Positions 30,460 to 56,228 of a stretch of DNA of 64,000 nucleotides are shown in pieces; position 1 is the first letter of the stretch; every line of letters starts with the position of its first letter. The notes under the pieces were generated by a model. The model saw nothing but the letters and a program-made list of their open reading frames with translations. It ran no database searches and was not told the DNA's origin. Both the position numbers and the translations under genes were made by a program. The DNA comes from Clostridiales bacterium. GTDB lineage: Bacteria; Bacillota; Dehalobacteriia; UBA7702. The stretch is taken from positions 17,549 to 81,548 of the forward strand of contig JAXGQJ010000004.1 of assembly GCA_040766505.1 (NCBI GenBank), given 5' to 3'.

Positions 30460-30638
30460 CAAAATCCTCCGCCGGCGCCAAAATTCCGGGCGGCCGCCGC
30501 CCCCGCCGCCGGCATAAAAATCAACCCGCCCCAAGGGAAGCGACGCGGCTTTTCCCCCGCTTCGCCCACCTTTTCCTCAAACCGAGGCAGCCGATTCCAT
30601 TCCATCCGCAACGGCCCCGCGGCCGGTTTGATCGCGAT

Positions 30639-30669
30639 AAAAAATGCGTTCCGCTATACGGCGGAACGC
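30639..30669 (-). terminator. rho-independent terminator after mttB copy 2
   Basis: minus strand GCGTTCCGC-CGTATA-GCGGAACGC followed by ATTTTTTAT. Confidence 0.6.
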
Positions 30670-30705
30670 GAAACCAGAAAACCGATGTTGATGTTTGGAG
30701 TGGGA

Positions 30706-32197
30706 TCAAATGTGGTATTCGGAAAGGGGAAGGCGGCATGCGCTTTCCATTTCATTTACGATATCCCGCACCGTTTTGCCAATATGGGGCAAAAGGGGCG
30801 GAACCTGATAATTCCGGTACAAATCCAAGGCCCGTTCATTGGCATTTTGGAGAATGTCCCGTCTGCCCGCCGCCTCCCACTCTTCCGGCATGGTGCGGTC
30901 AATCAAATTTGACTGCGACTGGCTTTCCTTAAAATATTGAAAGGTATGGCTGTGCGGATACGAATTCTCCGCCGGGGCCCACCTCGCGGATGGCGGCCAA
31001 TGCCAAAGATTCCTCATCCACCTCGATGCCTTTCAAAGCGTGAAGAATCATACCGGCGAATTCATTGTCCATAACCAGCTTGGAATAATCGAAGGTAATG
31101 CCCAATCCCAGCATACCCAGGCCATAAATCACATTGGCGCCTGCCAATGCCGCCAACAGCGCCGAGAGGGTGGTCTCATGGCCCGCTTGGGCGTCGGGAA
31201 CTTTGGCATCGGCCTAGCCGCCCGCAACCCAACTGGGCAAATGATAAAATTGGGCAATTTGCGCCACCGAGGCGGAGATCATGCCCAATTCCGGCGCTCC
31301 CACCCCGGCGGTGGTGGTGCGCAGATCCATCATCGTCGTGGAGCTGCCATAAATAAAGGGATTCCCCGGCCGGATGCCCTGGCACAAAACGAGGCCCGCC
31401 AACACCTCGGCATTGTGAACCACCAAGGTGCCGGCGAGGGTCACGGGGCCGGTTCCGCCCGACAGGGCCATGGAAAGCACATTGACGGGGATGCCTGCCA
31501 TCGCGGCTTCCATAATCACTTCCGTCGTATCCGGATTCAAGGAAAGGGGGCTGTTCGGGCAACAGAGAGGGGAATAGATCGGCCGCTTTCTCAGATTCTC
31601 CATCCCTCCTTGGATCGCCGCGGCCATGCGAATGATGGCTTTGGCGTTCTGCCCATTGCCCGCGCCAATAAAGGCATGTTTCGTTGTGTGATGGAAAATG
31701 GCCTCCGCATTGTGAATGCTTTGCACTTCCGGCGGAACTTCATCGGCGCCCAGCGCCCTTTCATAGACGGCGATGTTTTCCATCGCGTCACAGAGGCGCG
31801 TGGCGTCGCCAACGTCTTTTTTTGTAGAATTTTTCGCGGAGCGGCTTACCGGATCCACCACCTTGATTCCTTCGCCAAAATTGGTAAATGTCACCTTTTT
31901 CCCGTAGAGATAGACGTCGTTCTTGGGATTGCGCCCGCAGAGAAGAACAGAGCTCGGCGCCGCCCTGAGGGCGTCCTCCACCATGCTGGGCGTTACATAA
32001 ACGATTTGCCGGGCGGCGTCAAATTCCGCGCCCAGGCCTAAAAAAATGTCTTGCGCCTCCGGAGAAATCACCTTGACGCCGGTGTTCTGCAATATATCCA
32101 GGGTAGCGCCATGCAAGAGATACAGGTCATCTTCGGAGAACAGGTTCAACCCTATGCCGAGTATTTTCTCCTGCCCCGCCAATAAAGCGCGATTCAT
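30706..32197 (-). CDS. mttB: second, divergent pyrrolysine-type MttB-family methyltransferase (in-frame UAG 31214..31216; additional frameshift ca. 30965)
   Basis: ORF 31214..32197 ends ..[11 protein letters not shown], then TAG, then in-frame ..[17 protein letters not shown] (30929..31156); last ~100 codons continue in another frame (30706..31017); about 50% identical to copy 1. Confidence 0.75.
31214..31216 (-). other. in-frame amber codon, predicted pyrrolysine codon of mttB copy 2
   Basis: cta on plus strand; same alignment column (VAGG-O-A) as in copy 1 although flanking nucleotides differ. Confidence 0.75.
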
Positions 32198-32463
32198 TTT
32201 ATCTCCCCCTTCTTTTGGTCATCGTCGCCCTTTTTGCCTTTTGTGTTGTTCTTATTATAGCAGAAATTGAAATCCGTTCCCGCCTACAAAAAGTAAAATG
32301 ATGACTTTACACTTCGTAAGATTCCCCGGCGGGGCAAAAAAACTTAATTTTGGTAAAACGGAAACTAGACAATGTGTAAAATGACATTTTATCAATTCAA
32401 TGCTACGCTTAGGGCAATTGCCATAAAAAACCGTATATAGAGATTTTGGAAGGAGAGAGAAAA

Positions 32464-33954
32464 ATGGGTGAAATCAAAAGGCTTCAATATTTCGCCGGCG
32501 GCCAATGGCACACCTCAAAAAGTGAAACGTATATGACCGTATACAATCCCAGCACCGGCCAGCCGATCGCCGAAACGCCCTGCTGTACCGAGGAGGAGTC
32601 AACCATGCCGTCGCCTGCGCGAAAGAAGCGTTTCCGGGCTGGAGGGACACCCCGGCCATCAAAAGGGCCCAAATCCTCTAAACTACGGGATCTGTTGATG
32701 GAACATTTGGATGAACTCACCTATCTGGTGGCCTGGGAAAATGGCAAAGCCTGGGGCGACGCAAAAGGCGATGTATTGAAGGCGAAGAAGCCGACGGAGG
32801 TCGCCTGCGGCATTCCCAGCCTGATGATGGGCGAATCCAGCATGGACACATCAAAAGGCGTGGATACCGTACTATACCGCGAACCGTTGGGGGTTTTCGC
32901 GGGGATCGTTCCCCTTTAATTTTCCCGCGATGATTCCGATGGGCTGGATGACGCCGTTTGTATCGCCGCCGGCAATACCATCGTTTTAAAAGCCGCCAGC
33001 ATGACGCCGCAAACCGCGATGCGCATCGCCGATTTATACCGCGAAGCCGGCCTGCCCGACGGCGTGCTGAATCTCGTCACCTGCTCCAGGAATGAAGCGA
33101 ATCTGCTGCTTTCCCATCCGGATATCAAGAGCATCAGCTTTGTCGGTTCCACCGCCATCGGCCTTTCCGTCTATTCCCAGGCCGCCGCCGCCGGTAAGCG
33201 GGTGCAGTGCCTCTGTGAGGCGAAGAACCATGCCCTCGTCCTAGACGACGCGCCGATAGAACGAACCGCGGCGGGCATCATCAATTCCTGCTTCGGCTGT
33301 GCCGGAGAACGGTGCATGGCTTTGCCGGTTGTCGTCGCCCAGGAAAGCATTGCCGATCAACTGGTGGCGGCGATCGTTCGCAAGGCGAAAGAGCTAAAGG
33401 TGGGGCCGGCCTATGAAAAAGATACGGAGATGGGCCCCTTGGTCTCCGGCGGCCATAAGGATTTTGTCCTCAAATGGATCGACAAAGGGGAGGCGGAGGG
33501 CGCCGAAATGGTTCTGGACGGTAGGAATTTTAAGGTTCCCGGTTATGAGAACGGTTTTTTCGTCGGCCCCACCGTCGTGGACAAGGTACGGCCCGGCATG
33601 ACCATTGGCGATGAAGAGATCTTTGGGCCGGTGGTCTGCATCAAAAGGGTGAAGGATTTTGAGAGGGGCCTGGCCCTGATGAATGAAAACCAATTCGCCA
33701 ATGGCTCCGTTATTTTCACCCAGAACGGCTATTATGCCAGGGAATTTGCAGGGCGAACCGACGGCGGCATGGTCGGCGTTAATGTCGGCATCCCGGTTCC
33801 CATCGGCATTTTCCCCTTCTCCGGCCACAAACGCTCCTTCTTTGGCGATCTGCATTGTCTCGGAAAGGATGGCATCCGCTTCTATACCGAATCAAAATGC
33901 GTAACCACCCGCTGGTTCGACGAAGAAGAGCTGAAAAAGAAGGTCGATACTTGA
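32464..33954 (+). CDS. mmsA: CoA-acylating malonate/methylmalonate-semialdehyde dehydrogenase (MmsA/IolA type); frameshifted between ca. 32600 and 33000
   Basis: N-terminus MGEIKRLQYFAGGQWHTSKSETYMTVYNPSTGQPIAE after GGAAGGAGAG; ORF 33001..33954 (GERCMA, FPFSGHKRSFFGDLHCLGKDGIRFYT) matches MmsA closely. Confidence 0.75.
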
Positions 33955-34033
33955 GACAGCACCATCTGAGCCGGCCAAAACCTTGGTCGATTCCTCTATG
34001 AAGAGACATCCGAGCAAGCGAAGGAGGATGGTA

Positions 34034-35356
<1,323 letters not shown>

Positions 35357-35593
35357 AAAGAACGCGGAGGATAAATTCCCCGGCCCACAATGGAAAAGCA
35401 TCCTCCATATCAAGTCTTAAAAGCCCCAGAACCGCCAAATTCAGGGGCTATCCTTTCAAAAAAGGCAACCAATGCATAGAACCCCGGCGCTTTTAGCGAA
35501 AATCCAGATTATAGCCCAAAGCCGCCTTGCAGCGGCTTTAGGCTCAATCTGGCGGGCTTCGAGAAACGGCCTAGAGCTAGGTGCGGACAAAGG

Positions 35594-35631
35594 CCAGGCC
35601 CCAACGTATACGCACATACGTTGGGGCCTGG
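35594..35631. terminator. perfect 16-bp stem-loop between convergent gdhA and BCCT genes (bidirectional terminator candidate)
   Basis: CCAGGCCCCAACGTAT-acgcac-ATACGTTGGGGCCTGG followed by CTTTGGG. Confidence 0.5.
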
Positions 35632-35731
35632 CTTTGGGAGGGATGATGCCATTGGCGGTTTGTCGGCGGCCCGGAACCCGGCGGCGCTTTGCGCCGGGTT
35701 TCAGGCATTACAATGCCGGTTTTTCCAACAT

Positions 35732-37415
35732 TTAACGGCAAAGCGGCGGCTCCAGCCCGCTCACTTCTTGCACATCCTCATACTTATGGGTCACTTTGAT
35801 CTCCTTTTCTTTGTCTTGGCCAAAGTCCTCTTTCAGCATTCGATTCCCTGAAAGCACAAGGATCACAAAAATCGGAATCAGGAAAATCGCCGCGGCGATG
35901 GAAAGGGTTTGAATTTGCCCCGCCACGCCAAGATAGGTCAGGATCACCGCCAGCACCGCCATGGCGATGGCCCAGGAGAACCGATGCCAACGGGCCGGCT
36001 GCTCTTCCGCCTTTAAATCGCCGGAACAGATGGAAGCGATGGTATAAGCGGAAGAGTCGATGGTGGTGGCCGCGAAGATAAACGCCAGGACGATGTATAG
36101 AATAAGAAAGAAGATAGGAATCGGCAATGTTTGCAAAACCGCGATGATGGTGCCCACATTGCCCAGCTCCGCCATGGCTTCCGTCATCGCCATGGTTCCG
36201 GTCCATTCCAGATACATGCTGTATCCGCCCATGACCGCAAACATGCCACAGGTTCCAAACGTTCCAAACACCAATTCGGCGACGACCAATTGGCGAATGG
36301 TGCGGCCTTTCGATATACGCGCAACAAAAAGGCCCATCATCGGCGCATACGCCAGCCACCAGGCCCAATAAAAGACCGTCCACCATTGCGGGAAACTGGC
36401 GCCATTGTCCAAGACGGAGAATGGATCTGTCCAAAGGCTGATGCGGAAAAAATCCGCCAGCATGAGGCCGATGCTGTTCGTGGTCAGATTAAAAATAAAG
36501 GAAGTATAACCCCTAAACAGGCCGATGACCAAAATCCCGATGGCAAATAGGATCGCCAGATACAGGTTAATATCGCTCAACCGCGATATGCCCTTGTCGA
36601 GGCCGAGGAAAATCGAAGTGCCGAAGATCAGGAACCAGATGCCGATGACCACAAAAACAATCCAGGTCGAATTGCTGAGATCCAGGCCGAAAACACTGCC
36701 GGCCAGGCCGGTAATGGTCGGCACCGCAATGGACAATGTGGTGCCGACGGCGCCGACGATGCCGAAAATAGAAAAGATGTCGATCAGCACGCCGAGCCAA
36801 TTGTCGGCCCATTTCCCCAGCAGCGGTTTGCATGCGGCGCTCAGGCGCAGGATGTTCTTTTTACGCACAAAGATCATATAGGCGATCGGCACCGTTGGAA
36901 TGCAATAGATCGCCCAGGCGCTAAAGCCCCAGTGAAACATCGGATACATATGGGCATATTCAAAAATCAGCGCCTTGGCGGAACCGGTAAGGTTGACGCC
37001 AATCCCGGCGGCGGAATCCACATTATAAAGGGCCGCCAAACCGAGGGCGCGCCATCCAAATAGCTGACGCTTTCATAAAATCCCCAGCTCATAATCCCGC
37101 CGCCGATGCCGGCACAAAACAGCATTGCAACCCAGTTAAACCAGGAATAATCGGGTTTGTCCTCCGGCCCCCCAACTTGACCGTACCGTAGCGCCCCACA
37201 GCCCAATACAGCAACACAAAAAAGCAAAACAGACAGAACAATAAATAGGCCCAGCCCCAAGGAATCGTCGTCCAATTAAACGCCGAGGTGATCATCTTGG
37301 AAGCAATGTCCCGCGACAGAGAAATCGGCAGAAAAATCGCGAGCAGAACGATCACGGCGGGCAGGGTTACCCTTTTATCCACCTTTACATACCGAAACGG
37401 ATCTTCCAATTTCAT
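35732..37415 (-). CDS. BCCT-family (betaine/carnitine/choline) transporter; two frameshifts in N-terminal third
   Basis: ORF 35732..37039 (435 aa, many TM helices) plus 36967..37275 and 37089..37415 (N-terminus MKLEDPFRYVKVDKRVTLPAVIV.., AGIGGGIMSWGFYES). Confidence 0.75.
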
Positions 37416-37585
37416 GTTTCATCCTCCTTTACCCTATTTTAAATTATCCAAAAATTATGCAACCAAAGGCCCCACCTCCCTCATTTTGGCAATAAAAAAG
37501 CACCGGAACATGCATTCTGCATTTTTATAAGAAATGCATCTCCGTCATACGCCAATCGCCGATTGGCAAAAAACAGTGATCTTGG

Positions 37586-37632
37586 CCGAAAACCGGGAAA
37601 GGAAACGGCATTTTCGCCCGTTTCCTTTCCCT
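37586..37632 (-). terminator. rho-independent terminator after MttB-family gene 37640..39060
   Basis: minus strand GGGAAAGGAAACGG-10 nt-CGTTTCCTTTCCC then GGTTTTC. Confidence 0.55.
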
Positions 37633-37639
37633 TCCCCTA

Positions 37640-39060
37640 TTATTCTTTTACAACCGAACGGATATAATCCTGCAAAAGGCGGTCGAGTTCGGAATCGAGC
37701 ATGGTTTCCGGCGCCGCCGCCAAGCGCTCTTTATAGAGACGGTGGGCCCGCTCCAACATGTCCCGGCCTTCCATTTTCGCATAGCTGTCATAGGAGGACC
37801 AATCGGAAACCGTCGGCTGCCAATATTCCTTATAGTGTTCAAATGTGCTGGCATGGGCCAAATAACTGCCCTGCCCCACCTCGTCAATCAGATCCAGAGA
37901 CATGGCTTCGTCTCCGATGTCCATACCGGCGGCGATGCGGAAAACGCGTTCCACACATTCCTCGTCGATGATAAACTTTTCAAAAGACATGGTCATAATC
38001 GAATCGAGCACCCCCAAGCATTCATGGATGATATGGGCACCGCCCAGAATGCCCATCATCAAGTTTTGCATCGTTTCCAAAGCGGATTGGGGGTCAACGG
38101 TTTTCGCTTCCGACATTCCCGTCATCATACGGGTCGGCAGATGGTAAAAATGGTGGAAGATATCGAGGGAGGCCAGGTCGATCAGGAACATCTCCGGCGC
38201 CGCCGAGAGGTAGGAAGCGCGCTTCATATAGGTAATAGAGGAACAGGGAGCCGCCACAACCGGGCAGCCGGGCTTTACCAGCTGTACCAAAACCAGACCG
38301 GCGATGATTTCCGCCACCTGGGTCATCACGGTTCCGAACAGGTGCACCGGTGCGGTGGCGCCGCTCATGGCGCAGGGCAACACCATCACCACTTGACCGG
38401 CTTTCGCATAGGTCAGGATCGCTTCGGTGGTATCGGTGCCGAAAGCCAATGGGCTTAACGGATTGGCGGAAACGGCGGTTACGATCCGGTCATCGGAAAT
38501 CTCGTCCAGGCCAAAGGCCAGCGCCGTCATTTTCAACAACTGGCTGCTGTTTGCGCCATTGCTGTTGATGCTGATGATGGCTTTGTCCGTATGCCGCAAT
38601 ACCGCATAGAGCATATGGAGGTGCTTGGTGCTTTGGTCGATGTCATTGGGATTGATGGGATTCGCGCCGACAAGGCCGGTAACGGAACTGCTTTGGTGCA
38701 ATTTCTGCACAGCGGCATAATCCGCCAAAGTGCCGAAACGGCGGGGCCCTTGCCAGTCTTGCATATAAACACAACCGACATTGGGCTCACAAACCTGGTC
38801 CCGGCCCATCAAGATGGTATGGTTCGGATTCCGGGCCTCCCAATAGAATTGGGAGGGCGCCGTCTGCAAGGCACGTTCCGTCATCTCTTTTGGAATATGC
38901 ACCACATTTCCTCAACGCGGGCGCCGTGGGAGCGAAACACCTCCACAGCCTCGGGGCAGTCAAACCGTATACCGGTACGATCCAAAATGGTGAGCACCCC
39001 GCCGTGCACGCGTTCCATATCGTCGCGGTTCAACATCGACAGTCTGGGTTTCCTGATCAT
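37640..39060 (-). CDS. MttB-superfamily methyltransferase without pyrrolysine, copy 2 (one frameshift ca. 38890)
   Basis: ORF 37640..38905 (421 aa) plus N-terminal fragment in 38881..39177 (MIRKPRLSMLNRDDMERVHGGVLTILDRTGIRFD); no stop at the Pyl column. Confidence 0.75.
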
Positions 39061-39082
39061 GATTTTGTCTCCCTTCCATCCT

Positions 39083-40387
39083 TTAATTGCACGCGCCGTC
39101 CAAGATGGCCAGGTTCTTATCGAGGACGGCCAGCACATCATCGAGTTGATCCTTGGTGATGACCAAAGGAGGGCCAAAATTCATCAGATTGCTATAGGTC
39201 ATGTGATAGACGCCGTCCTTCAGATTGGCGCTTTTGAACGCCGACATAGAGGCATCGTCCATCTTTTCCTTCGTTTCGCGGTTTTTAACAAATTCCAAGC
39301 CGATAAATAGGCCGATCCCTCGCACATCGCCGATGGCGGGATGATGCTCCTGCAGTGCCTGGAGCTTCTCTTTCGCATAGGCGCCAAGGATCACTGAATT
39401 CCTCAATAAACCTTCTTCGCCATAAATCTCCATCACCCTGCAAGCGGTGGCGACACTTAATGTATGTCCGCTATAGGTCAAGCCCGCCGACAGCTTGCGG
39501 TCTTCAAAATAATCGGCGATTTCATCTTTAACCGCCACCGCCCCCAAAGGAGCGTAGCCGCTGGTCATCCCTTTGGCCATTGTCACCATGTCGGGGACGA
39601 TGCCAAAATGTTCAAAGGCGAACATTTTGCCGGTGCGGCCGAAACCCGCCATGACTTCATCGCAAACCAGCAAAATCCCGTACCGGTCGCAAATGGAACG
39701 GATCTTAGGCAGATAGCCTTTCGGCGGCACAATGATGCCGTTGGTTCCGGTGACCGTTTCTAAAAAGACGGCGGCGATGGTGGCGGGGCCTTCATATTGC
39801 ACCACCTCTTCAAAATGCTTGGCGCATTCCAAATGGCAATTTTCCTCCTTTTGGCCGAAAGGGCAACGGTAGCAATAGGGATCGAGAAATTTCACGACGC
39901 CGGGAATCAGAGGCTCCGCGTCAACGCGCCTGGGATCGCCGGTTAAGGCGAGGGCGCCGGCGGTGGCGCCATGGTATGAACGGTAGCGGGACAACAGTTT
40001 GGAGCGGCCCGTATAATAGTGGGCGATCTTGATGGCGTTTTCATTGGCGTCGGCACCGGCATTGGTGAAAAAAACCTTGCCAAACCCTTTCGGTAGAAAA
40101 TCGACGATTTTTTTCGCACATTCCCCTTTTTTGCTATTGCTGAAGCAGGGCGCCGCAAAGGTCAATACATCCGCCTGCTCTTTCAGAGCGGCGATTGCTT
40201 TAGGATGCTGGTGCCCGATATTACAGTTGACCAACTGCGCCGACAGATCGACAAAACGGTTTCCTTCCGCGTCGAAAAAATAGATGCCCTCTCCCCGCTC
40301 CATCGGTATCGGGTAAATCGCGCCCTGCACAGACCAGGAAAACAGATTGTATTTTCTGTTCAGCTTGATGATTTCCTTATTGTCCAT
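39083..40387 (-). CDS. class-III PLP-dependent aminotransferase (omega-amino acid / beta-alanine--pyruvate transaminase type)
   Basis: ORF 39083..40552; start MDNKEIIKLNRKYNLFSW at 40387 after AAAGGAGAGAG; ..VTMAKGMTSGYAPLGAV.. PLP-lysine region. Confidence 0.8.
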   Translation of the reverse strand: MDNKEIIKLNRKYNLFSWSVQGAIYPIPMERGEGIYFFDAEGNRFVDLSAQLVNCNIGHQHPKAIAALKEQADVLTFAAPCFSNSKKGECAKKIVDFLPKGFGKVFFTNAGADANENAIKIAHYYTGRSKLLSRYRSYHGATAGALALTGDPRRVDAEPLIPGVVKFLDPYCYRCPFGQKEENCHLECAKHFEEVVQYEGPATIAAVFLETVTGTNGIIVPPKGYLPKIRSICDRYGILLVCDEVMAGFGRTGKMFAFEHFGIVPDMVTMAKGMTSGYAPLGAVAVKDEIADYFEDRKLSAGLTYSGHTLSVATACRVMEIYGEEGLLRNSVILGAYAKEKLQALQEHHPAIGDVRGIGLFIGLEFVKNRETKEKMDDASMSAFKSANLKDGVYHMTYSNLMNFGPPLVITKDQLDDVLAVLDKNLAILDGACN

Positions 40388-40620
40388 TCTTCTCTCTCCT
40401 TTTGCTCGTTTTTCGATGCCATCGCCGCTGCGGAAAGGGGGGATCAGCCCATGAAGAAACGCCCCTTTTTCGCCTCTTCCGATGAAGAGAATGCGCCGGA
40501 AACGGCGGCGTTCGCCCAACGGCCCCGCGCAGCCGTTTTCCGGCCAAACCAAAGCATCACACCCTGCTTCACTGATTGCAACAAATGGTCTTTCCCCACA
40601 CTGTACCCGTTCCTAGCAGA

Positions 40621-41271
40621 TTATGACCGCAATAGCTCCATGGCTTTCGTGACGCCGTCGGCGGCGTTTTCCGCAAATGCGTCGGCGCCGATCCGTTTGG
40701 CCCAATGCTCCGTTACCGGCGCGCCACCCACAATGGTTTTGAATTTTCCCTTCAGCCCTCTTTCCAGCAACAGGTTTTCCAAATGCTTTTGCTGTATCAT
40801 GGTTGTGGTCAACAGGGAGCTGGTGCCGATAATGTCCACATCATATTCCACGGCCTTTTCCAGGATCGCGGCATTGGAGACATCCCGTCCCAGGTCGATC
40901 ACCTCAAAGCCATTGGCAACCAAAAGTGAGGCTACGATCCCTTTGCCAATGTCGTGAATGTCGCTTTCCACCGTAGCGATCAAAAACTTGCCGGCGCTGC
41001 GTTTTTCCCCGCCGGAAGTTGCCAGAGCTTCATTTAAAACCGTCAAAGCTTCCTTCATTGTTTCCGCCGCCCGCATTAGTTCGGGCAAAAACAGCGTCCC
41101 TTCTTCAAACCGGTCGCCGACTTCCATAATGCCGGGAATGAAACCGTCGTCGATCAGCCGGTTGGGCGCCAGGCCCATTTCCAAACCTTGTTTGGCGATG
41201 TCCACGGCCCCTTCGGCATCCCCTTCCACAATGGCCTGTAAAGCATCGTTTAACAGCGCGTCATTTTTCAT
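40621..41271 (-). CDS. methylamine-family corrinoid (cobalamin-binding) protein, MtbC/MttC-like
   Basis: 216 aa; B12-binding DxHxxG (SDIHDIGKGIV); 30-nt gap to mtbB. Confidence 0.8.
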   Translation of the reverse strand: MKNDALLNDALQAIVEGDAEGAVDIAKQGLEMGLAPNRLIDDGFIPGIMEVGDRFEEGTLFLPELMRAAETMKEALTVLNEALATSGGEKRSAGKFLIATVESDIHDIGKGIVASLLVANGFEVIDLGRDVSNAAILEKAVEYDVDIIGTSSLLTTTMIQQKHLENLLLERGLKGKFKTIVGGAPVTEHWAKRIGADAFAENAADGVTKAMELLRS

Positions 41272-41301
41272 TTCTCCGCCCTCCAAATATTGTGTTTCCG
41301 G

Positions 41302-42690
41302 TCAAAAGGTCATACCGGTTTTTTTTGAAAATTTCTCCACACAGTTGATTTCAATTCCCAATAGTTTTGCAATATTGGCCTTGGCCTCAATGCCCCGGCT
41401 GGCGGCTCCATACCCCATGAATACAGTGGCGATGTCCAGATCCTCCCGGACTTCCCGCATGGCAACTTCATCGGTGAGATCGAGCAAACCAACCCCCAGC
41501 TTTCCGGCGACATATTCCTTCGCTTCATTTAAGCGCATTTTTTTTGCCAGTTGCATCCGTGCCACCAAATCCCCGGCGGTGCGAACCCCCCCCAAGCCGG
41601 AGGCCTGGCTGTGAACGATGGCCATCCCGGAAGGATCGCCATAACCAACCTACAATCCGTCCATTTTGGCGATTTCCGCCATAGCGGTAGAGGCCCGGGA
41701 AACCGCGTCGATGGGCGGCGTGATCTGCATCGGCACGCCGCCAACCCCCATGCCCACATTGGCGTGAACCGGAATCGGCGAAATTTCGCCGCAATATTTA
41801 CACATCGTGACCGACCGTGCCAAGTTCCAGGGAAAACTTTTTTTGGTATTGGTATTGACCACAGCGCCAAAAACGTCGCCGCCGGCCCGGGCTACCATTT
41901 CCGCCTGGCGGTGCGGATACATGCCCGCCAACCTCTCGCCATGGTAGGTAATTTCGCCATGGAAGCCGAGAATAAATTCACCGGCCATGCCGACTTCAAT
42001 TTGGATCTTGGGATATTTCGCTTTTAGATTTTCAACGCCCCGCAACACCGCATAGAATTCCGCATCTCCTCCGGCGGCGGTCGTGTCAAAGTCGATGCCG
42101 TCGGCGCCGGCTTCAAACATCGCGGCGCCAAGCAAGCCGATATCGCCGATCAGCATTTCCGCGGTTTCCATCTGTGCTTCCTGGGCCTCCCGTATCTTAC
42201 CCTTTGGCATCAGCTCCGCCGCGTTTTCAGCGGGGCCGTCGGGCTTCGTATACATGGGCATATTCGGCATTGCGCCGTATAAAAGCGGCAAGGTTGTGCC
42301 CAATAAGGCCTCCGCCGTTATATATTGCTCCTCGGGCAAGATGGTTTTCAACGGCTTGAAGCTATAATGCACATAGGCCATCTCCAATGTGTCGGCCATT
42401 AAAACCCGTTCATAGGTTTGCAGGATCTGCGGCCTTGCGATCGGAAGGCCCAGCCGGGTGAATTTCAGCGGCTGAGAATCATAGGTAAGAACAAGTTCAT
42501 TGCCTCGCTCCACACTGACAAATTTGCGCGCTTCACAAATGATTTCCATCAGTTTTTCAATATCATCACCGGTGAGCGGCGGACATTTGCAATTCTTTAC
42601 AGCCTGGGCCACCCCGCTTTCGATCTCTTCACGAATCTCAGCCCGTGACATCTGCACGAAGGTTCCGTCTCCCATGCGTGTGCGTATCAC
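41302..42690 (-). CDS. mtbB: dimethylamine:corrinoid methyltransferase MtbB, pyrrolysine-containing (in-frame UAG 41650..41652)
   Basis: ORFs 41650..42690 (..[22 protein letters not shown]) and 41302..41625 in one frame separated by TAG: ..[38 protein letters not shown].., matching the archaeal MtbB Pyl context as recalled (..VDGI-O-TIGVGDP..). Confidence 0.8.
41650..41652 (-). other. in-frame amber codon, predicted pyrrolysine codon of mtbB
   Basis: cta on plus strand at junction of ORFs 41650..42690 and 41302..41625. Confidence 0.75.
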
Positions 42691-42734
42691 AATATACCCC
42701 CCTATCTTTTTTTAAGTCGGTTTTATTGCTTTCA

Positions 42735-42770
42735 TTATAAGCAAAAAAAAAATTTTCCACATTGCACAGA
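42735..42770 (-). promoter_or_regulatory. AT-rich promoter region upstream of mtbB with TATAAT -10 box
   Basis: minus strand ..TTTTTTTTTTGCTTATAATGAAAGC..; only strongly AT-rich stretch in a ~60% GC window. Confidence 0.35.
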
Positions 42771-42816
42771 ATGTAAAAAATTCTTTTAACACTATCGTTT
42801 GTTATTTTTTAAGCGG

Positions 42817-44433
42817 CTATACCGTTAAGTGTCCGTTATTTTTCCCAAACAAATAGGCGTGCAGGGCAAATTCCAAGGCGAACCGTTTTGCCCCACGGTC
42901 AAAGCCTTCGCCGAGGATGTCCTCAATTTTTTGCAATCGAAAATAAAGGGTCTGGCGAACCACAAAAAGTTTTTCCGCCGTCTTTTGCTTGGAGCAGTTG
43001 CATTCAAAAAAGGTCATCAGCGTATGCAGCAGCTCTTTATTCTCGGGCCGTACCAAATCGCCGAGGTGATCCGCAATAAAGTCCGCAAGCAGTTCCCCTT
43101 CCGCCAAACCATAAAGGATGCGGTCGATATACAATTCTTCATAAAAAACGGTTTGCCGATGCTGTTTTTTTACGATCTCCATGGCGATCCAAGCCGTATC
43201 ATAGCTAAGATGCAGGTCTTCACAGCGGTATACCCGCTTTCCGAGAGAAAAATGGGCCTTTGAATAGTCGATATAGGGGTTTTGCCGATCCCGCAAGGTT
43301 TCCACCAGGCCGTTTACATGGGCCCAAACCTCTTTCCCCGGGGCGGGGGCCAATAGGATATAGATAAACGTATTGTTCTCCATATAACTTAAAAGGCAAA
43401 GGCCCGCGTCCTCAAAGGTTTTGCGCACAATCGCATTGGTATGCAGCAAAAAATCCTCGTTGAAGCGAAACGCATCCATCGGGGTGTTTCTGTCGCAGCG
43501 GAGAATATCCACCAGAAAGACTTGCGCCCCGATCTTGCCATATTGCAGGCCCATATGCCGCAAATGGGTCAGCACATCCCGTTCCCGTAGTTTTCCTTCC
43601 AGCCAATCCCTAAGCCAGCCGTAATTTTTGCGCAAGGCCTCTTCCTTCACGAGCATTTCCTTCATAATATCATGCTCCAATTTATCGGCCAGGCGATCCA
43701 AAATGAGCATTTCAAATTGGGTAAGGTCGCGTTCATTGCTATGGAAGGCCAAAATTCCATAGGGCTTTCCCACCACTTTTAACATCTTCGCCAAAAAGTT
43801 CTCTTTGGAAAAAATGCGATCCTCTTTAATGTCGTCCCGATACTGGTGCACCCACCTTTCCAAAACCGTGGCCATGGTGGGATCGGAATGATACGGTTTA
43901 TTGTGATAAGGCAGATAGGCGATATTGAGTTTTAAATATCTCGCGGTATAGGCCACGCTTTCGTCGATGCTCTGATTTTCCGCCAAAAATTTCAATTGGT
44001 GCTCATAGTAGTCCACATGCTGAAAGATTTTGCTGCTGCTGCTGATGATCCGGGTATTGATTTCCCGGGTGATGTCGATAAAGCGCACGGCTTTGGAAAA
44101 AATAATCAGTGGAAAATCGTGTTCTTTCGCGAGATCGATCATGGCCTGGGGGATCACTTTGTAATAATAAAACGCTTCGATACAAAGGGCCGAAACATTG
44201 CGGGCGATCAATTGCCGCAAAAATTCAACGGCAATTTCCGTGTTCTCAAAGCCAATTCCGGTGGTAAGAACAAGTTCATCGCCGTTGACATATTCCGTAA
44301 TATCGTCTCGAATTTCTAAAATGTGTACCCAACTCACTTTACGGCCCAGGTTTTTTGAGCCGACCAAAACGAGAGCGACATCTTGTAAGCCGGGCATTTC
44401 CAGAACATCTCTCAATGTCACACCAAAATCCAT
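42817..44433 (-). CDS. PucR-family transcriptional regulator (terminates with UAG)
   Basis: ORF 42817..44457; C-terminal PucR HTH ..TAEKLFVVRQTLYFRLQKIEDILG..; start MDFGVTLRDVLEM after GAAGGAGGT; TAG stop with in-frame TAA four codons later. Confidence 0.8.
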   Translation of the reverse strand: MDFGVTLRDVLEMPGLQDVALVLVGSKNLGRKVSWVHILEIRDDITEYVNGDELVLTTGIGFENTEIAVEFLRQLIARNVSALCIEAFYYYKVIPQAMIDLAKEHDFPLIIFSKAVRFIDITREINTRIISSSSKIFQHVDYYEHQLKFLAENQSIDESVAYTARYLKLNIAYLPYHNKPYHSDPTMATVLERWVHQYRDDIKEDRIFSKENFLAKMLKVVGKPYGILAFHSNERDLTQFEMLILDRLADKLEHDIMKEMLVKEEALRKNYGWLRDWLEGKLRERDVLTHLRHMGLQYGKIGAQVFLVDILRCDRNTPMDAFRFNEDFLLHTNAIVRKTFEDAGLCLLSYMENNTFIYILLAPAPGKEVWAHVNGLVETLRDRQNPYIDYSKAHFSLGKRVYRCEDLHLSYDTAWIAMEIVKKQHRQTVFYEELYIDRILYGLAEGELLADFIADHLGDLVRPENKELLHTLMTFFECNCSKQKTAEKLFVVRQTLYFRLQKIEDILGEGFDRGAKRFALEFALHAYLFGKNNGHLTV

Positions 44434-44570
44434 GTGAACCTCCTTCACTCTTTTCACAATGAAGACGCAAATGAGATGCTTTCCATCCTTAATTTTATTA
44501 TAAAGATCGGGCCATGGTTGTCAATAAAATACCGAAACATTCCGCCGCCGTTCGAAAAGCAACGGAAGGC

Positions 44571-44939
44571 TCAGGCATAAATATCTTTGACAATCTCCTC
44601 TCCGGTGACGGTACCGTCGGCGTCGAGATAGACGGCGGCGGCCCAAAATTCCACTTCCCGATCTTCCAACCGGTAGGTCTGGAGATAAAACGCCGCGGCG
44701 CGGCGCAGATGGCGCATTTTTTTCGGGGTCATGCTGTCGAAGGGGCCGCCAAAAGCGGCATTGCTTCTCGTTTTTACCTCGATGAATACAATGCGACCGT
44801 CCTTTTCTAGCACCAAATCGAGTTCGCCGCCGCGCAGCCGGTAATTTTGATGCCGCAGGCGATAACCCTCCCGTTCCATCCGGGTACGGATGTGCGCTTC
44901 GCCCTGTTGCCCTTTCTCCCGGCGATCCATTTCAGACAT
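44571..44939 (-). CDS. YraN-family (UPF0102) endonuclease
   Basis: ..GEAHIRTRMEREGYRLRHQNYRLRGGELDLVL..IVFIEVKTR..; start MSEMDRREKG. Confidence 0.7.
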   Translation of the reverse strand: MSEMDRREKGQQGEAHIRTRMEREGYRLRHQNYRLRGGELDLVLEKDGRIVFIEVKTRSNAAFGGPFDSMTPKKMRHLRRAAAFYLQTYRLEDREVEFWAAAVYLDADGTVTGEEIVKDIYA

Positions 44940-49048: not shown

Positions 49049-50471
49049 TTAAGCGCCGAAAAAGGCTTTCGCCACGGCGCTGACCAGACGCGTCAGCGGT
49101 TCTTGGTAAACGCCGAGAACCAGCGTTACCAGGGCGGAAACAACCATGACCAAAGCCGCGGAACCCGGCGTTTTTACCGGCGTATCTTCCAGCGGTTCGC
49201 CGATAAACATCACCTTCGCCACGATCAAATAGTAGTACACGGAAACCATGCTCATCATGATGGCGAGGAATGCCAGCCAGATATAGCCTTCCTTAATGAT
49301 GGCGACGAAGAGATAGAATTTGCCGTAGAACCCGGCCAAAGGCGGGATGCCTGCCAGCGAAAGCAGGGAAACGAGGATGATCGTCGCCATAAAGGGCGAG
49401 CGCTTCGACATACCGCAAAATCACGGATTTCCTCGCTACCGGTCTGGTTGGTAATACGGTGATGGCGGCGAAAACACCGACATTGGCAAAGATATAGATC
49501 GCCGAATAATAGAGCATCGCCGCAATGCCGATCTCATTGAAGGCCAAAAGACCCAAAAGCAGATAACCGGCATGGGCAATGCTCGAGAAGGCCAGCATTC
49601 TCTTTAATATTCGTCTGCGGAATCGCCACGAAGTTCCCGAGCAGGATCGTCAGTCGCAAGGACAATCAGCAGGGTGCCGATGGGGCCCGCCGCATCCGGA
49701 GCCGCCACATGAATGAAGCGGATGAAAGCGGCCAATGCGGCAATTTTTGGAACCGGTGGACAAAAGCGCCGTTATGGGCGCCGGCGCGCCTTCGTAAATG
49801 TCCGGCGCCCACATATGGAAGGGCACCAGCGACAGTTTAAAGGAGAAGCCGGCGATGATCATCACCGCCGCCGCAATCATCATTGCGGAAACGCCGCCGC
49901 TCAGAATACCGGCGATGCCTTCGTAGGCGACGGTGCCCGTCAGACCGAAAACATAGCTGATCCCGAACAGCATAATCGCCGAAGACATGGCGCTCAATAG
50001 GATATATTTCAGCCCGGCTTCCGAGGATTTCTTATCGCCCTTTTTGTAGGCGACGAGAATGATGAAGGAAATCGTCATCAGTTCCAGGCCAAGGTACAGG
50101 GTGACAAAGTCGGTGGCGGACGCCATGACCATCATGCCGACCAGCGTTGAAACGATCAGCGCATAGTATTCGCCTTGGCTGTGGCCCAGCCGCTCGGTAA
50201 AGCGGAGGGACATGCCGCAGACGAGGGCGCCGGTGATCAAGAACAGGATTTTAAAGAACCCGCTCATCGCATCCACTTGGTACATGCCGCCGAAGGCCGA
50301 ACCTTCCACGGTATGCATCAGCCAAGCAATGCCCAGCACCACAATGAGGCCCATCACCGCGAAATAGCCGACGCCTTTTTGTTGATCTCTAGGGGCGATC
50401 AAGCCAAAAACCAGGAGAACCAGTGCGAGAGCCGCCGTTGCCAATTCTACCGTAATCAATTGGATATTCAT
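49049..50471 (-). CDS. nuoN: NADH-quinone oxidoreductase subunit N (frameshifted in C-terminal third)
   Basis: ORFs 49650..50471, 49293..49598 and 49049..49411 colinear with NuoN. Confidence 0.7.
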
Positions 50472-51957
50472 CAGAACAGCCCTCCCATCTTGAATTCATA
50501 GACTTTCTCCGCGAGAGGCGTGATGCCATTGTTGATCAAATCCATCATCAGATTGGGCCAGACGCCAAAGAGAATCAGGGTGCAGCACAGGATAATGATG
50601 GGAACCAATTCCACGCCTTTGGCATCGGTCATATGATCCCATTCTTCCTTCCGCGGGCCAAAGAATACCCGTTTCACAACGGTGAGAACGTAGATCGCCG
50701 TAATGACGATGGCGAAAACAGAGATAACGGCTTGAACCGGGAAGGCTTGGATCGCTCCGGTAAAGATTGAGAATTCCGCGACGAAATTATAGAGCCCCGG
50801 CAAGCCGAGAGAAGCGAGACCGGCGATCATGAAGCCGTAAGCCACCCTTGGCATCTGGTGGGCCAAGCCGCCGAATACGGCGATCTCCCGCGTATGGGCC
50901 TTGTGGTAAATATTGCCGACCAAAGCGAAGAAGAGGGCCGTCATAATCCCGTGGGCAAACATCTGGGCCACGGCGCCATCCAAACTGACGGTGTTCAAAG
51001 CGGCGATCCCCAAAAGCACATAACCCATGTGGCTGACGGAGGAATAGCCGATCACAAATTTCAGGTCTTTTTGCACCATGGCGACGAAAGCGCCATAAGT
51101 GGCATTGACCGTGCATAAAGTGGCGATCAGCGGCGCCCAGTAATAAGCGCCTTCCGGGAAACAGGCGATGCCGACCCGGATCAGACCGTAACCCCAGCTT
51201 CATCAGAACGCCGGCGTGCAACATACTGACGGCGGTGGGCGCGGCGACGGACCGTCGGGAGACCAGGTATGCAGCGGCCACATCGGCACCAGGAAGCCAA
51301 AGCCGATCATCATGAAAAAGAAAGCGAACTCTGAAACGGGCTGTCATAGACCACCGAAGCCAGGGTCGCGATATCGAAGGTATTGTAACCCAGACGATGC
51401 CGGCCTGATATAGGTGGCGATCATGCCGATCAGAACGAAAGCGGAGCCCACCAACAGGTACAGCGTCAGCTTCATTGCGGCATACTCTTTCTCGTGCTGC
51501 CCCACACACCGATTAGAATATACATCGGGATCACGGCGACTTCAAAGAAAAGGTAGAAGAAAAACAGATCCATGGAGAGGAAAACGCCGAATACCCCGGC
51601 CACCAGCAGCAAAAGGAAAATGAAGAATTCCTTAATCCGGTGGTGCATATCCCAGGAAGCAAAGACGCCGGTAAAGATCACAAGCCCCGTCAACAGCAGC
51701 AGCGGGATGCTGATGCCGTCCACACCGAAGGCAAAATGGATGCCAAATTCCTCAATCCAAGGCACATCGAAGATGAATTGCAAACCGCCGGCGGCCTTAT
51801 CGTAAAAGAGGTAAAGGAGAATCGTTCCCAACAGCGAGATAAAGGTAAACACCGCCGCGGTGGCTTTGATCAGCACATCGGATTTCGTCGGGATACAGGC
51901 GATGATGATGGCCCCGACGATCGGCGAAAAGACGATCATAGGCAAAAGCAAGCTCAT
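50471..51957 (-). CDS. nuoM: NADH-quinone oxidoreductase subunit M (frameshifted centre)
   Basis: N-term ORF 51472..51957; C-term ORF 50471..51079 (..GYSSVSHMGYVLLG..). Confidence 0.7.
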
Positions 51958-53842
51958 TTAAACACACCTCCTAAAATCGGGGTGGCCAAAAGAATCATAA
52001 TGATCACCACAGCGCCGAAGAAAATCAAAGCATAACTTTGTAAACTGCCGTTTTGAATGAAGCGCAACCAAGCGCCGGTATAGCGTACCGTATCGCCGGT
52101 GCCGTCGGCAATGCCGTCCACCACTTTGCGGTCGCACTTATTGCAAAGCCAGGCAATGCCCAGCATTATTTTGCGATAGAGCCACGCATATACTTCGTCG
52201 ATATAAAACTTATTGTACAGCAAATTGTAGAGGGGTTTCCATTTTTCCGCCAGCGCCACATAGTCCACAACGTTTTTATAGTAGACGAGATAGGCGAGGA
52301 AGATGCCGCCCAAGGCCACCAGGGTGGAGACGCCGGCAATCACGAGGTTCAGCTCGGCATGGTGCGGATGGCCATAGAAAACGAGTTCCGGATACCCCAG
52401 CTTCAGCATGACATAGCCGGCGCCGATGGCGAAAACCGCGAGGACGATCAAAGGCCCCGTCATAAAAAAGTTGCATTCATGGGCATGGTGATCGCTGCGC
52501 TTTTTGCCGAAGAAGGTAACAAAGACAAGGCGGAACATATAGAAAGCCGTCATCCCCGCTACCAACGTGCCGATGACCAACAGCGGCGTCCAACCGCCGG
52601 TAAAGGCCGAAAGCAAGATTTCGTCCTTGCTCCAGAAGCCGGAAAGCGGGAAGATACCGGCAAGGGACAGCGCCCCGATAATGAAAGTCGTCGTTGTAAT
52701 CGGCATCTTTTTGGCGAGGCCGCCCATATTGAAGATGTCTTGGTCATGCACGGCATGGATCACCGCGCCGGCGCCAAGGAAGAGCATACATTTGAAGAAA
52801 GCGTGGGTGGTCAGGTGAAACATCCCCGCCGTCATCGCGCCCATGCCCATGGCCATAATCATATAGCCCAACTGGCTCAGGGTGGAAAAGGCCAAAATCC
52901 GCTTAATATCCCGCTGCACCAAAGCGATGCTGGCGGCAAACAGAGCGGTAAACCCGCCGAGATAGGCGATATAGATCAGGGCATTCGGCGCCGCATGGAA
53001 GATCACGAAGGAACGGGCGATCAAATACACCCCGGCGGCCACCATGGTGGCGGCGTGGAGGATGGAGGAAACCGGCGTGGGGCCTTCCATCGCATCGGGC
53101 AACCAAACGTGCAGCGGGAACTGGGCGCTTTTGGCCATCGGGCCAAAGAAGATCAGGATGGCGATCAACAGCATCATCCCGGTGCTGACTTCGACGCTGC
53201 CGCTGCCGATGACGCTGGAAAGCTCCATAAAATCAAAGGTTCCGAAGGTCAGATAGAGGAGAATGATCCCCAGCATAAAGCCGAAGTCCCCCCAGCGGTT
53301 CGTGATGAAGGCCTTATTGGCCGCGTCCGCCGCCGACTGTTTGTGGAACCAAAAGCCGATCAACAGATAGGAGCATAGACCCACCAATTCCCAGCCGATG
53401 AACATCACAAAGATATTGTCGGCGATAACGAGGAGCAACATCGAGAAAGCGAACAGGGACATATAGGCAAAGTAGCGGGAAAACCCCGAATCCCCTTCCA
53501 TATAGCCGACGGAATAGACCAAGACAAGGAAGGCGATCAGCGTAACCATTGCCATCATCGTGGTCGACAAAGCTGATCCAAGAGCATCCCCATGCCGATT
53601 TTCAACGACAAAATCGCCCAAGGAAAAAGATTCAGCCAATTGACCGTTACCTGATAGGGTTGTTCCATGCTGTAACCGCCGCCGACCACCGAAACCATGG
53701 CCATAATGGAGACGGCAAGGGCGCCGCCCATAAAGGCGATGGCGGTACCGGCGCTTAAAGCCTTGGAACCTTTGAACAGGAAGATGATCAGGATATAGGC
53801 GATCAAGGGCAGAATGGGAATTAACCATGCATAATCTAACAT
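51954..53842 (-). CDS. nuoL: NADH-quinone oxidoreductase subunit L (one frameshift ca. 53580)
   Basis: ORF 51954..53828 body; true N-terminus MLDYAWLIPILPLIAYILIIF in ORF 53555..53842. Confidence 0.8.
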
Positions 53843-53876
53843 TTTCTCAAATCACCCTCCTTACCACTTCAGCCAG

Positions 53877-54180
53877 TCGAGTTCGTCCACGTCGGTGGAG
53901 AAGCGATCTCTGTAAACACTGATAATCACCGCGAGACCCACCGCCACTTCCGCCGCGGCCACAACGATAACGAAGATGGCGAAAACATGGCCGACGAATT
54001 CATTGGGGGTCAGGTAACGGAGAATGCGACGAGGTTAATATTGACGGAATTCAGCATCAGCCGATGCCCATCAAACCGCAATGGCGTTCTTTTTCACGAC
54101 GGCGCCATAGAAGCCGATGGCAAAAAGGGCGGCGGCGAGTAGAGATAATGGTGAACACCCACCGTAAACAAGCCGGTGAA
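53877..54180 (-). pseudogene. nuoK: NADH-quinone oxidoreductase subunit K; frame broken
   Basis: minus-strand translation ..[38 protein letters not shown]-stop. Confidence 0.55.
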
Positions 54181-54189
54181 AATCGTAGA

Positions 54190-54725
54190 CGATCGTCATC
54201 TGGAATGCTTCACCCCTTTCGCGATAATGATGGCGCCGACCAGAGCAAAGAGCAGCAAGAGCGCCGCCACTTCAAAGGGAACGACGAAATCCGTCATCAT
54301 CAAATCTCCTGACGGGCCGACAATGCTGGTCCCTTCGCTGAGATAAGGCACATAAAAATCGGTACGCACCGAAACATAGGACAACATGCCGGAAAAGCAA
54401 AAGGAAACGATACGCCGCTAAAGCGGTAGCGATTCGGCACATTGACTGGCGAATATCGCCCCTTCTCGTCAGCATCACACCAAAGGTGAAAGCAAAACCG
54501 AGATGGCGCTGACATAGACCAACAACTGCAGGGCGGCGATGAAATCCGCCAGCAATAAAAAGAGATGCCGGAAACGCCGATAAAGCACAAAACCATGAAA
54601 ACGGCGCTGTGTACCAGGTTCTTGGAAAGCACCATGCCCAGGGCCATCGCAACGATGATGAAGGCGAGAAGGAAAAACACGGCGCCGGGCAAAATGGTGT
54701 GAACAAAGGATATCAACTCTTGCAT
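54190..54725 (-). pseudogene. nuoJ: NADH-quinone oxidoreductase subunit J; frame broken
   Basis: N-terminus MQELISFVHTILPGAVFFLLAFIIVAMALGMV (54300..54725); C-terminus in 54196..54387. Confidence 0.55.
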
Positions 54726-54739
54726 CAGGCTTTTTCCTC

Positions 54740-55250: not shown

Positions 55251-55257
55251 AAGAATT

Positions 55258-56207: not shown

Positions 56208-56228
56208 TAATTTCTTCTCTCCTATACA

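Follow-up and report, generated by a model that had tools for sequence, protein, structure and literature searches.

An island of pyrrolysine-containing and pyrrolysine-free methyltransferase genes with a BCCT carrier and an omega-aminotransferase: a candidate system for stepwise betaine demethylation

The window analysed here is a stretch of 64,000 nucleotides (nt) from contig JAXGQJ010000004.1 of a Clostridiales bacterium (assembly GCA_040766505.1), and all coordinates are positions in it unless a comparison locus is named. It carries an island spanning ~30.7-44.5 kb that encodes two methyltransferases, MtbB and MttB, with an in-frame TAG codon for pyrrolysine (Pyl), a Pyl-free member of the MttB superfamily and a single corrinoid protein. 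They are accompanied by a PucR-family regulator, a BCCT-family transporter, a class-III aminotransferase, a glutamate dehydrogenase (gdh) and a coenzyme A (CoA)-acylating semialdehyde dehydrogenase. We propose, with somewhat less than even confidence, that the genes of the island act as a unit in the breakdown of an acidic trimethylammonium compound (a betaine) taken up from outside: the three N-methyl groups would be passed to the single corrinoid protein, and the remaining skeleton would be deaminated and oxidised. The reading as one pathway is favoured by a conserved core of genes, by the recurrence of the gene set in other loci, by the single corrinoid gene and by the spacing of 22 nt between the aminotransferase and Pyl-free mttB genes. 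With more reserve, we suggest that bacterial Pyl-MttB and Pyl-MtbB of this type may demethylate N,N-dimethyl and N-methyl omega-amino acids, not (only) free trimethylamine (TMA) and dimethylamine (DMA), and might together with the Pyl-free MttB strip a betaine to its primary amine.

Gene content and organization of the island

A sequence-only reading of the window had singled out the interval 35732-44433 and placed in it six genes on the (-) strand, in the order pucR, mtbB, corrinoid gene, class-III aminotransferase, Pyl-free mttB and BCCT gene. Profile searches of the translations found all six as described (Table 1). The island reaches past this interval, down to ~30700, with three further genes below the BCCT gene: gdh and the semialdehyde dehydrogenase gene, both on the (+) strand, and a Pyl-containing mttB on the (-) strand. 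Loci for comparison (designated by L numbers) come from scans of genomes anchored on the Pyl-free MttB clade and of metagenomes anchored on MtbB, and were mapped by tblastn.

Table 1. Features of the island, from its upper to its lower edge, and of a second methylamine cluster in the window.
Feature	Position	Strand	Basis or remark
Sigma-70-type promoter-like site upstream of pucR	44497..44524	(-)	TTGACA-16-TATAAT, 12/12 matches
PucR-family transcriptional regulator	42817..44433	(-)	PF07905 109 bits (N-terminal PucR), PF13556 66 bits (C-terminal HTH_30)
TATAAT hexamer	42734..42739	(-)	AT-rich 126-nt spacer upstream of mtbB, read directly from the sequence
mtbB-type methyltransferase, in-frame TAG (Pyl) at 41650-41652	41302..42690	(-)	PF09505, TIGR02368
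Cobalamin-binding corrinoid protein	40621..41271	(-)	PF02607, PF02310; sole corrinoid gene of the island
Class-III (omega) aminotransferase, taurine/beta-alanine:2-oxoglutarate type	39083..40387	(-)	NF004718 537 bits vs cutoff 472
MttB-superfamily methyltransferase without Pyl, 1-nt deletion near 38911	37640..39060	(-)	PF06253 355 bits
Terminator-like hairpin after Pyl-free mttB	37589..37631	(-)	stem-loop 37631-37595, then UUUU
BCCT-family transporter, two frameshifts near 37170 and 37045	35732..37415	(-)	PF02028 414 bits, hand-joined protein
Glutamate dehydrogenase gene, split by several frameshifts	34034..35356	(+)	three-frame translation, tblastn with intact L073 orthologue
CoA-acylating methylmalonate/malonate-semialdehyde dehydrogenase	32464..33954	(+)	TIGR01722 561 bits vs cutoff 448
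mttB, in-frame TAG (Pyl) at 31214-31216, frameshift near 30950	30706..32197	(-)	TIGR02369 586 bits vs cutoff 525
Terminator-like site after Pyl-mttB	30646..30669	(-)	9-bp stem, 7 G-C pairs, T-rich tail; lower edge of the island
Second methylamine cluster: sigma-54/PAS activator	5791-7842	(-)	
Second methylamine cluster: Pyl-free MttB	4313-5503	(-)	
Second methylamine cluster: MttB, in-frame TAG at 3101-3103	2615-4096	(-)	
Second methylamine cluster: two APC-family permeases	1031-2548, 2-967	(-)	

The key clue to the island is its set of aminotransferase, gdh and semialdehyde dehydrogenase genes. Enzymes of the aminotransferase's class (EC 2.6.1.55) also accept beta-alanine. The closest solved protein is the taurine:2-oxoglutarate aminotransferase of entry 6jix, with 382 bits against 279 for the next one, and relatives of the island enzyme are labelled taurine--2-oxoglutarate transaminase in JGI. 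Dependence on 2-oxoglutarate fits the neighbouring gdh gene, which occupies the same position in L001/L073. The semialdehyde dehydrogenase reaches only 328 bits with its second-best family, and its orthologues are 81-88% identical in L073, 65% in L009 and 67% in L172. In the last of these loci the 67% relative lies directly beside a 73% relative of the aminotransferase, without nearby methyltransferases, which indicates that the two genes form a stand-alone omega-amino-acid module. An aminotransferase clade dedicated to methyltransferase clusters was considered and rejected, as a 65% relative is found in L171 outside any methyltransferase context.

The Pyl-free MttB matches PF06253 over its full length (profile positions 29-493) and scores 300 bits with TIGR02369, below the cutoff of 525 of this model of the Pyl-type TMA methyltransferase. 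It has Met316 at the Pyl position. Its best solved relative is the glycine betaine methyltransferase MtgB (PDB 2qne/9yce; 291 bits, full length), in which Y97, R312, H348 and F356 bind glycine betaine (PMC13080624). The counterpart of R312, which binds the acid group, is conserved in all characterised Pyl-free members of the family, and their substrates are all acidic quaternary amines (PMC13080624). In the clade of the window protein this residue, Arg311, is invariant, and an acidic betaine is therefore the likely substrate. The protein is not assigned as MtgB itself, since the Arg is the only one of the four binding residues kept (Y97 is replaced by Val, H348 by Glu and F356 by Ile).

Among NCBIfam equivalogs, the hand-joined BCCT protein scores highest with the carnitine/gamma-butyrobetaine antiporter model, although the 343 bits fall short of its cutoff; TIGR00842 gives 367 bits and also falls below its cutoff (407.6). 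An orthologue with 83% identity is found in L001/L073. In close relatives of the island an additional BCCT gene, of glycine-betaine type, separates the corrinoid gene from the aminotransferase gene (L006 5296-6990; L001 12245-13908). The window has a bare 233-nt spacer at this place (40388-40620) and retains the CaiT-like BCCT gene after mttB.

Both Pyl enzymes are assigned by curated families. MtbB scores 619 bits with PF09505 and 485 bits with TIGR02368 (cutoff 369), the equivalog of the DMA methyltransferase. Its reading frame stays open and conserved downstream of the TAG codon, and the same alignment position is always TAG in the full-length homologues of the fetched loci (90/90). No solved MtbB structure was found for a comparison of the pocket. 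In Pyl-MttB the TAG lies in the motif GG*AD (the asterisk marks the TAG codon), at the position of Pyl334 of Methanosarcina barkeri MttB (7xcm; 364 bits). The residues G110, M249, Pyl334, Y364 and G372 of the M. barkeri enzyme are kept and T111 is replaced by Glu. This Glu (FGEG; window 31870-31881) is present in 59 of the 72 Pyl-MttBs from 71 fetched loci, among them every Pyl-MttB that sits with a Pyl-free MttB, a BCCT gene or an aminotransferase. Thr, as in the FGTG (Gly110-Thr111) of M. barkeri, is found in 11 of the 72, which are the most distant ones. An Arg at the position of MtgB R312 ('IPVRISGG*') occurs in only four distant Pyl-MttBs: L132, L143, L144 and L154 (Pyl-mttB next to mtbB). 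The three canonical in-frame TAG codons of the window would imply Pyl decoding by this organism.

The corrinoid protein scores 211 bits with TIGR02370, just below the cutoff of 215, followed by the MtbC model (192) and the MtgC model (180). Its gene starts 30 nt downstream of mtbB. The pucR gene terminates with TAG (42817-42819), and some TAG codons are evidently decoded as pyrrolysine in this organism.

The promoter-like site before pucR is the sole perfect consensus match in 30500-44800. The sequence-only reading had also pointed to a TATAAT in the AT-rich region before mtbB and to a terminator after Pyl-free mttB. The hexamer is present, and was not scored as a full promoter by the consensus scan. 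The terminator is borne out by folding, which gives a hairpin of -27.8 kcal/mol (z = -2.7) with a G+C-rich stem of 14 bp; owing to its short T tract it escaped the consensus terminator scan. Overall the scan returned about as many sites as in shuffled sequence (promoter-like 14 vs 12.8 expected, terminator-like 25 vs 22), and of the candidate signals we rely solely on the hairpin supported by folding and on the perfect consensus promoter of pucR. The intergenic spacers measure 126 nt (pucR-mtbB), 30 nt (mtbB-corrinoid gene), 233 nt (corrinoid gene-aminotransferase), 22 nt (aminotransferase stop to Pyl-free mttB start) and 224 nt (Pyl-free mttB-BCCT gene). They indicate at least three transcription units in the interval 35732-44433, in which the aminotransferase and Pyl-free mttB genes are almost certainly co-transcribed.

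Recurrence of the gene set in other loci

The sequence-only reading had recommended a search for the same gene order in other organisms. We found the set of gene families intact in close relatives and reshuffled in unrelated lineages. L006, a short-read metagenome contig, holds an intact run of pucR, mtbB(TAG), corrinoid, BCCT, aminotransferase and mttB genes ((TAG) after a gene name marks an in-frame TAG for Pyl). Its mtbB encodes 346 + 107 amino acids around the TAG codon and the MtbB part is 86% identical to the window protein, while its Pyl-free MttB (P0122), also intact, is 82% identical. In L001/L073, from the metagenome-assembled genome Clostridiales bacterium AnMBR.bin322, the same run is followed by the BCCT gene, gdh, an aldehyde dehydrogenase gene and Pyl-mttB, exactly as in the window; an anaerobic membrane bioreactor is the habitat from which relatives originate. 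Transposase genes (rve/HTH_Tnp_1; DUF772) flank the island in L001 (2829-3973 and 17096-17515), one of them just after a fragmented Pyl-free mttB. The conserved core is pucR-mtbB-corrinoid gene, with pucR adjoining mtbB in L002, L004, L006, L093 and L096; in L002, a more distant relative, the core is accompanied by genes for an NCS1 transporter and for an aldehyde:ferredoxin oxidoreductase.

Reshuffled versions of the set differ clearly in architecture. L009/L104 has a divergent pucR with Pyl-free mttB, aminotransferase, Pyl-mttB, Pyl-mtbB, corrinoid and BCCT genes, followed by an aldehyde dehydrogenase resembling methylmalonate-semialdehyde dehydrogenase (MMSDH) and by methylmalonyl-CoA mutase. 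L130 reads aminotransferase, mtbB(TAG), corrinoid, mttB(TAG), corrinoid, Pyl-free mttB, BCCT and AOR, and L013 reads Pyl-free mttB, corrinoid, mttB(TAG), mtbB(TAG), corrinoid, AOR and aminotransferase. In L122 mtbB(TAG), a corrinoid gene and AOR are joined by a gamma-aminobutyrate (GABA) transaminase (TIGR00700 599 bits, cutoff 506) and a molybdenum aldehyde oxidoreductase. In L009/L104, L130 and L013 the families are gathered in a single co-directional cluster. Incomplete versions are found in L063, L105, L123, L067, L108 and L127. Of the MtbB loci, 41 have a length of 8 kb or above; among these, Pyl-mttB is present in 32, a corrinoid gene in 30, Pyl-free mttB in 21, an aldehyde-oxidising enzyme in nine, a BCCT gene in six and a class-III aminotransferase in three. 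The aminotransferases of these methyltransferase loci fall into four or more class-III subfamilies, a sign of repeated and independent recruitment.

Several further associations were noted in the course of this survey. In L004 (1287-6599; same organism as L100) a corrinoid gene, Pyl-mttB and a DctPQM TRAP transporter are co-directional and lie next to pucR-pucR-mtbB(TAG)-corrinoid gene. TRAP systems transport organic anions and are an odd partner for a TMA system. Genes for the NAD(P) transhydrogenase PntA/PntB adjoin several clusters (L067 2361-3539; L108 3527-6468; L130 964-2289 and 6804-7973). Alanine dehydrogenase as a recurrent recycler of the amino acceptor was considered on account of 'AlaDH-like' open reading frames (ORFs) and rejected, as these precede PntB and are transhydrogenase alpha subunits. 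L007/L091 (JGI 3300032870) has a corrinoid gene, a URO-D-type MT2, mtbB(TAG), mttB(TAG) and Pyl-free mttB, followed by genes for a beta-keto acid cleavage enzyme (BKACE) and a dehydrogenase, a pairing known from carnitine breakdown. The window itself contains a second methylamine cluster (2-7842, (-) strand) in which a Pyl-free and a Pyl-containing MttB are paired near transporters (Table 1).

Proposed pathway and alternative explanations

The aminotransferase requires a primary amine and the BCCT carrier delivers a trimethylammonium compound; exactly three methyltransferase classes and one corrinoid protein stand between the two, and stepwise demethylation is therefore proposed. The lack of an MtmB, the monomethylamine methyltransferase, in the Pfam lists of seven loci is in keeping with this scheme. 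The betaine would be imported by the BCCT carrier and its quaternary amine, R-N+(CH3)3, demethylated by the Pyl-free MttB. The resulting tertiary amine, R-N(CH3)2, an analogue of TMA with one methyl replaced by a carbon chain, would be the substrate of Pyl-MttB, and Pyl-MtbB would act on R-NH-CH3, a secondary amine analogous to DMA. The Toa-type aminotransferase would then transfer the amino group of R-NH2 to 2-oxoglutarate, with glutamate dehydrogenase releasing ammonia and regenerating 2-oxoglutarate, and the CoA-acylating semialdehyde dehydrogenase would convert the aldehyde to an acyl-CoA. PucR may serve as an activator, at the least of mtbB and the corrinoid gene. The corrinoid:tetrahydrofolate methyltransferase and the reductive activase are presumed to be encoded elsewhere. 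The sequences establish the gene identities, the Pyl codons, the gene order and the conservation and recurrence of the set; we infer from them all substrates in this scheme, the sharing of the corrinoid protein, the co-regulation by PucR and the acceptance of substituted amines by the Pyl enzymes. Pyl is believed to form a charged adduct with amines and so to activate them (PMC9842639, PMC12155760), which makes such chemistry plausible.

A malonate-semialdehyde dehydrogenase points, weakly, to a three-carbon skeleton and so to beta-alanine betaine. With low confidence we regard this compound as the best-fitting substrate, which would be degraded via beta-alanine and malonate semialdehyde to acetyl-CoA. 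Substrates of the gamma-butyrobetaine type suit L122 better. The sequence-only reading had already suggested stepwise demethylation of one imported betaine, and in this respect the comparative loci, the one corrinoid gene and the 22-nt spacing speak for it; it had missed the Pyl-MttB and the frameshifts and had paid little attention to the aminotransferase, gdh and semialdehyde dehydrogenase. Its suggestion that MtbB might act on a dimethylamino acid calls for revision: such a compound is a tertiary amine, analogous to TMA, and is more likely a substrate of the Pyl-MttB at 30706-32197, in which case MtbB would act on the N-monomethyl intermediate, a secondary amine.

The most serious alternative, which we consider somewhat less likely than the single pathway, is that independent modules lie side by side: a Pyl system for free DMA/TMA, a betaine module that stops after one demethylation, with excretion of the dimethyl product, and a beta-alanine/taurine-type module. 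Their closeness would then result only from the gathering of methylated-amine and amine genes in these genomes. A number of observations weigh against a single pathway, and many of them suit separate modules. Many of the more distant relatives have no more than pucR-mtbB-corrinoid gene (L004, L093, L096), and mtbB stands alone in L005, while the aminotransferase-aldehyde dehydrogenase pair stands alone in L172. An aminotransferase lies within 10 kb of mtbB in only three of the 41 loci of at least 8 kb. Adjacency of mttB and mtbB is classical and also expected for ordinary conversion of TMA via DMA to monomethylamine (MMA). The parts of the island belong to at least three to four transcription units on both strands, with the hairpin and gaps of 224-233 nt between units, and both the 233-nt gap and the hairpin lie inside the interval 35732-44433. 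In all quaternary-amine systems characterised so far, only one methyl group is taken off and the product is excreted (PMC12155760). Both Pyl enzymes score above the curated TMA/DMA methyltransferase equivalog thresholds, Pyl-MttB retains the M. barkeri catalytic residues, and no altered pocket is visible in the sequences of the Pyl enzymes, which only the Thr111-to-Glu exchange separates from the classical ones. An acid-binding Arg at the MtgB R312 position of Pyl-MttBs was looked for and rejected, this residue being aromatic in the window enzyme and in most others. Finally, neither Pyl machinery nor a tRNA gene was found within the 64-kb window.

The association of aminotransferases with methyltransferases was also assessed statistically. 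In de-duplicated loci, every class-III aminotransferase gene (9/9) has a Pyl-methyltransferase or corrinoid gene at a distance of no more than 2.5 kb, against an expected fraction of 0.49 (binomial p = 0.0016), and 4/9 have one within 0.5 kb, against 0.148 (p = 0.03). The test is not significant at 1.5 kb and rests on nine genes, which is a further point to be set against the single pathway; the proximity signal is real, with few genes behind it. A juxtaposition of independent modules leaves several features unexplained: the four omega-aminotransferase subfamilies and several aldehyde oxidoreductases found beside Pyl-mtbB and corrinoid genes in unrelated lineages, the position of the aminotransferase 22 nt upstream of Pyl-free mttB, the presence of one corrinoid gene for the whole island, and the BCCT and TRAP types of the transporters.

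Cleavage of the betaine, or of its first product, to free TMA/DMA, for instance by beta-elimination from a 3-(methylammonio)propionyl compound, would reconcile a classical specificity of the Pyl enzymes with the link to BCCT and Pyl-free MttB. The island contains no lyase, CoA-transferase or acyl-CoA dehydrogenase candidate for such a reaction, and the aminotransferase would be left without a primary-amine substrate, which makes this route improbable.

A decaying island, with Pyl-free mttB and the BCCT gene as true pseudogenes, was suggested by the frameshifts, one in mttB, which puts its first 50 codons out of frame with the rest, and two in the BCCT gene, which is distributed over three frames. 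The lesions that can be aligned to the L006/L073 orthologues (mttB, and BCCT near 37045) are single-base deletions, and apart from the shifts the coding sequences are 82-85% identical to these orthologues over their full length. Housekeeping genes of the window are also split or domain-partial, namely proS (7785-8255), ispG (9652-10215), dxr (11500-12399) and nuo (49653-57841), as is gdh. A cell in which all of these were really broken would not be viable, and the shifts were therefore treated as errors of an indel-prone assembly, which they probably are; gene decay is very improbable.

Least probable of all is the use of free TMA/DMA with an aminotransferase substituting for the MMA methyltransferase MtmB, so that monomethylamine would yield formaldehyde for the aldehyde oxidoreductases: MtmB was absent from the Pfam lists of seven loci and from the 25 families seen most often among 129 neighbouring ORFs that had no assignment, and AOR-type enzymes adjoin mtbB in several loci, but we know of no precedent for a class-III transaminase acting on methylamine, the aldehyde enzyme of the window is a CoA-acylating (methyl)malonate-semialdehyde dehydrogenase, L122 has a bona fide GABA-transaminase equivalog, and the aminotransferase-MMSDH pair is also found without methyltransferases.

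Significance and comparison with known systems

To our knowledge, pyrrolysine is known from three enzyme activities only, the MMA, DMA and TMA methyltransferases. According to the metaproteome study of strain DCMF, methylamine methanogenesis is the one process to which Pyl methyltransferases have been linked until now; the study calls their role in bacteria open (PMC9768040). The enzyme of the dimethylglycine step in anaerobes is likewise unassigned (PMC6778437, PMC9768040). The island and its recurring relatives provide a concrete candidate answer, made up of definite genes and a few possible substrates, to both questions, the role of bacterial Pyl methyltransferases and the removal of the second and third betaine methyl groups in anaerobes. 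If the proposed pathway is correct, it would give pyrrolysine enzymes their first new substrate class since their discovery and define a TMA-free route for the complete anaerobic mineralisation of betaines, comprising carbon, nitrogen and the three methyl groups. Annotations and microbiome inventories that equate every Pyl-mttB or mtbB with TMA or DMA consumption would then be partly wrong. The TMA-free route would also matter for TMA and trimethylamine N-oxide in guts and for the precursors of methane in digesters and sediments.

Full-text literature searches returned neither a description of this operon type nor a proposal of Pyl enzymes acting on substituted amines, in agreement with the earlier remark, made from the sequence alone, that such a gene composition had not been described as an operon type. 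One cold-seep study includes mtbB/mtbC when listing certain mtgB cluster types and offers no interpretation. The closest counterparts of the Pyl enzymes are MttB/MttC and MtbB/MtbC of Methanosarcina, which share with the island the TIGR02369 and TIGR02368 families, the UAG codons at the same sites and an adjacent cognate corrinoid protein, as well as, for MttB, the catalytic Gly110, Met249, Pyl334 and Tyr364. Unlike these systems, the island is bacterial, has one corrinoid gene for three methyltransferases, carries Glu in place of Thr111 and lacks both MtmB and a coenzyme M methyltransferase. It is also linked to BCCT, Pyl-free MttB, omega-aminotransferase, gdh and semialdehyde dehydrogenase genes.

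The MtqC-centred systems of Eubacterium limosum (MtpB, MtcB, MtyB, MthB) resemble the island in the action of a Pyl-free MttB on an acidic quaternary amine, in the sharing of one corrinoid protein by several methyltransferases and in the conserved Arg equivalent to MtgB R312 (PMC12155760, PMC13080624). They differ in that they have no Pyl enzymes and no aminotransferase/aldehyde-oxidation module, and remove one methyl group with excretion of the tertiary amine. MtgB of D. hafniense has its R312 counterpart in the window protein, whereas the other three binding residues differ. Removal of more than one methyl group by anaerobic corrinoid-dependent enzymes, from glycine betaine via dimethylglycine to sarcosine, is known from 'Ca. 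Formimonas warabiya' DCMF and Sporomusa ovata An4 (PMC6778437, PMC9768040). Their end point, however, is sarcosine, which is cleaved reductively, and no role of a Pyl enzyme or of an aminotransferase has been proposed for them. The DCMF genome has a locus (L054) in which, similarly, Pyl-mttB and Pyl-free mttB lie between two BCCT genes.

The aminotransferase and dehydrogenase of the island have their counterpart in the pair formed by Toa (6jix) and (methyl)malonate-semialdehyde dehydrogenase: the aminotransferase is Toa-like by its 382-bit match, the dehydrogenase passes TIGR01722, and relatives of both are adjacent in L172. The difference is that in the window the pair is embedded in a methyltransferase island, with the aminotransferase probably in an operon with Pyl-free mttB. 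Set beside all these systems, the island consists of known families in a recurring, undescribed combination, which implies a new substrate range.

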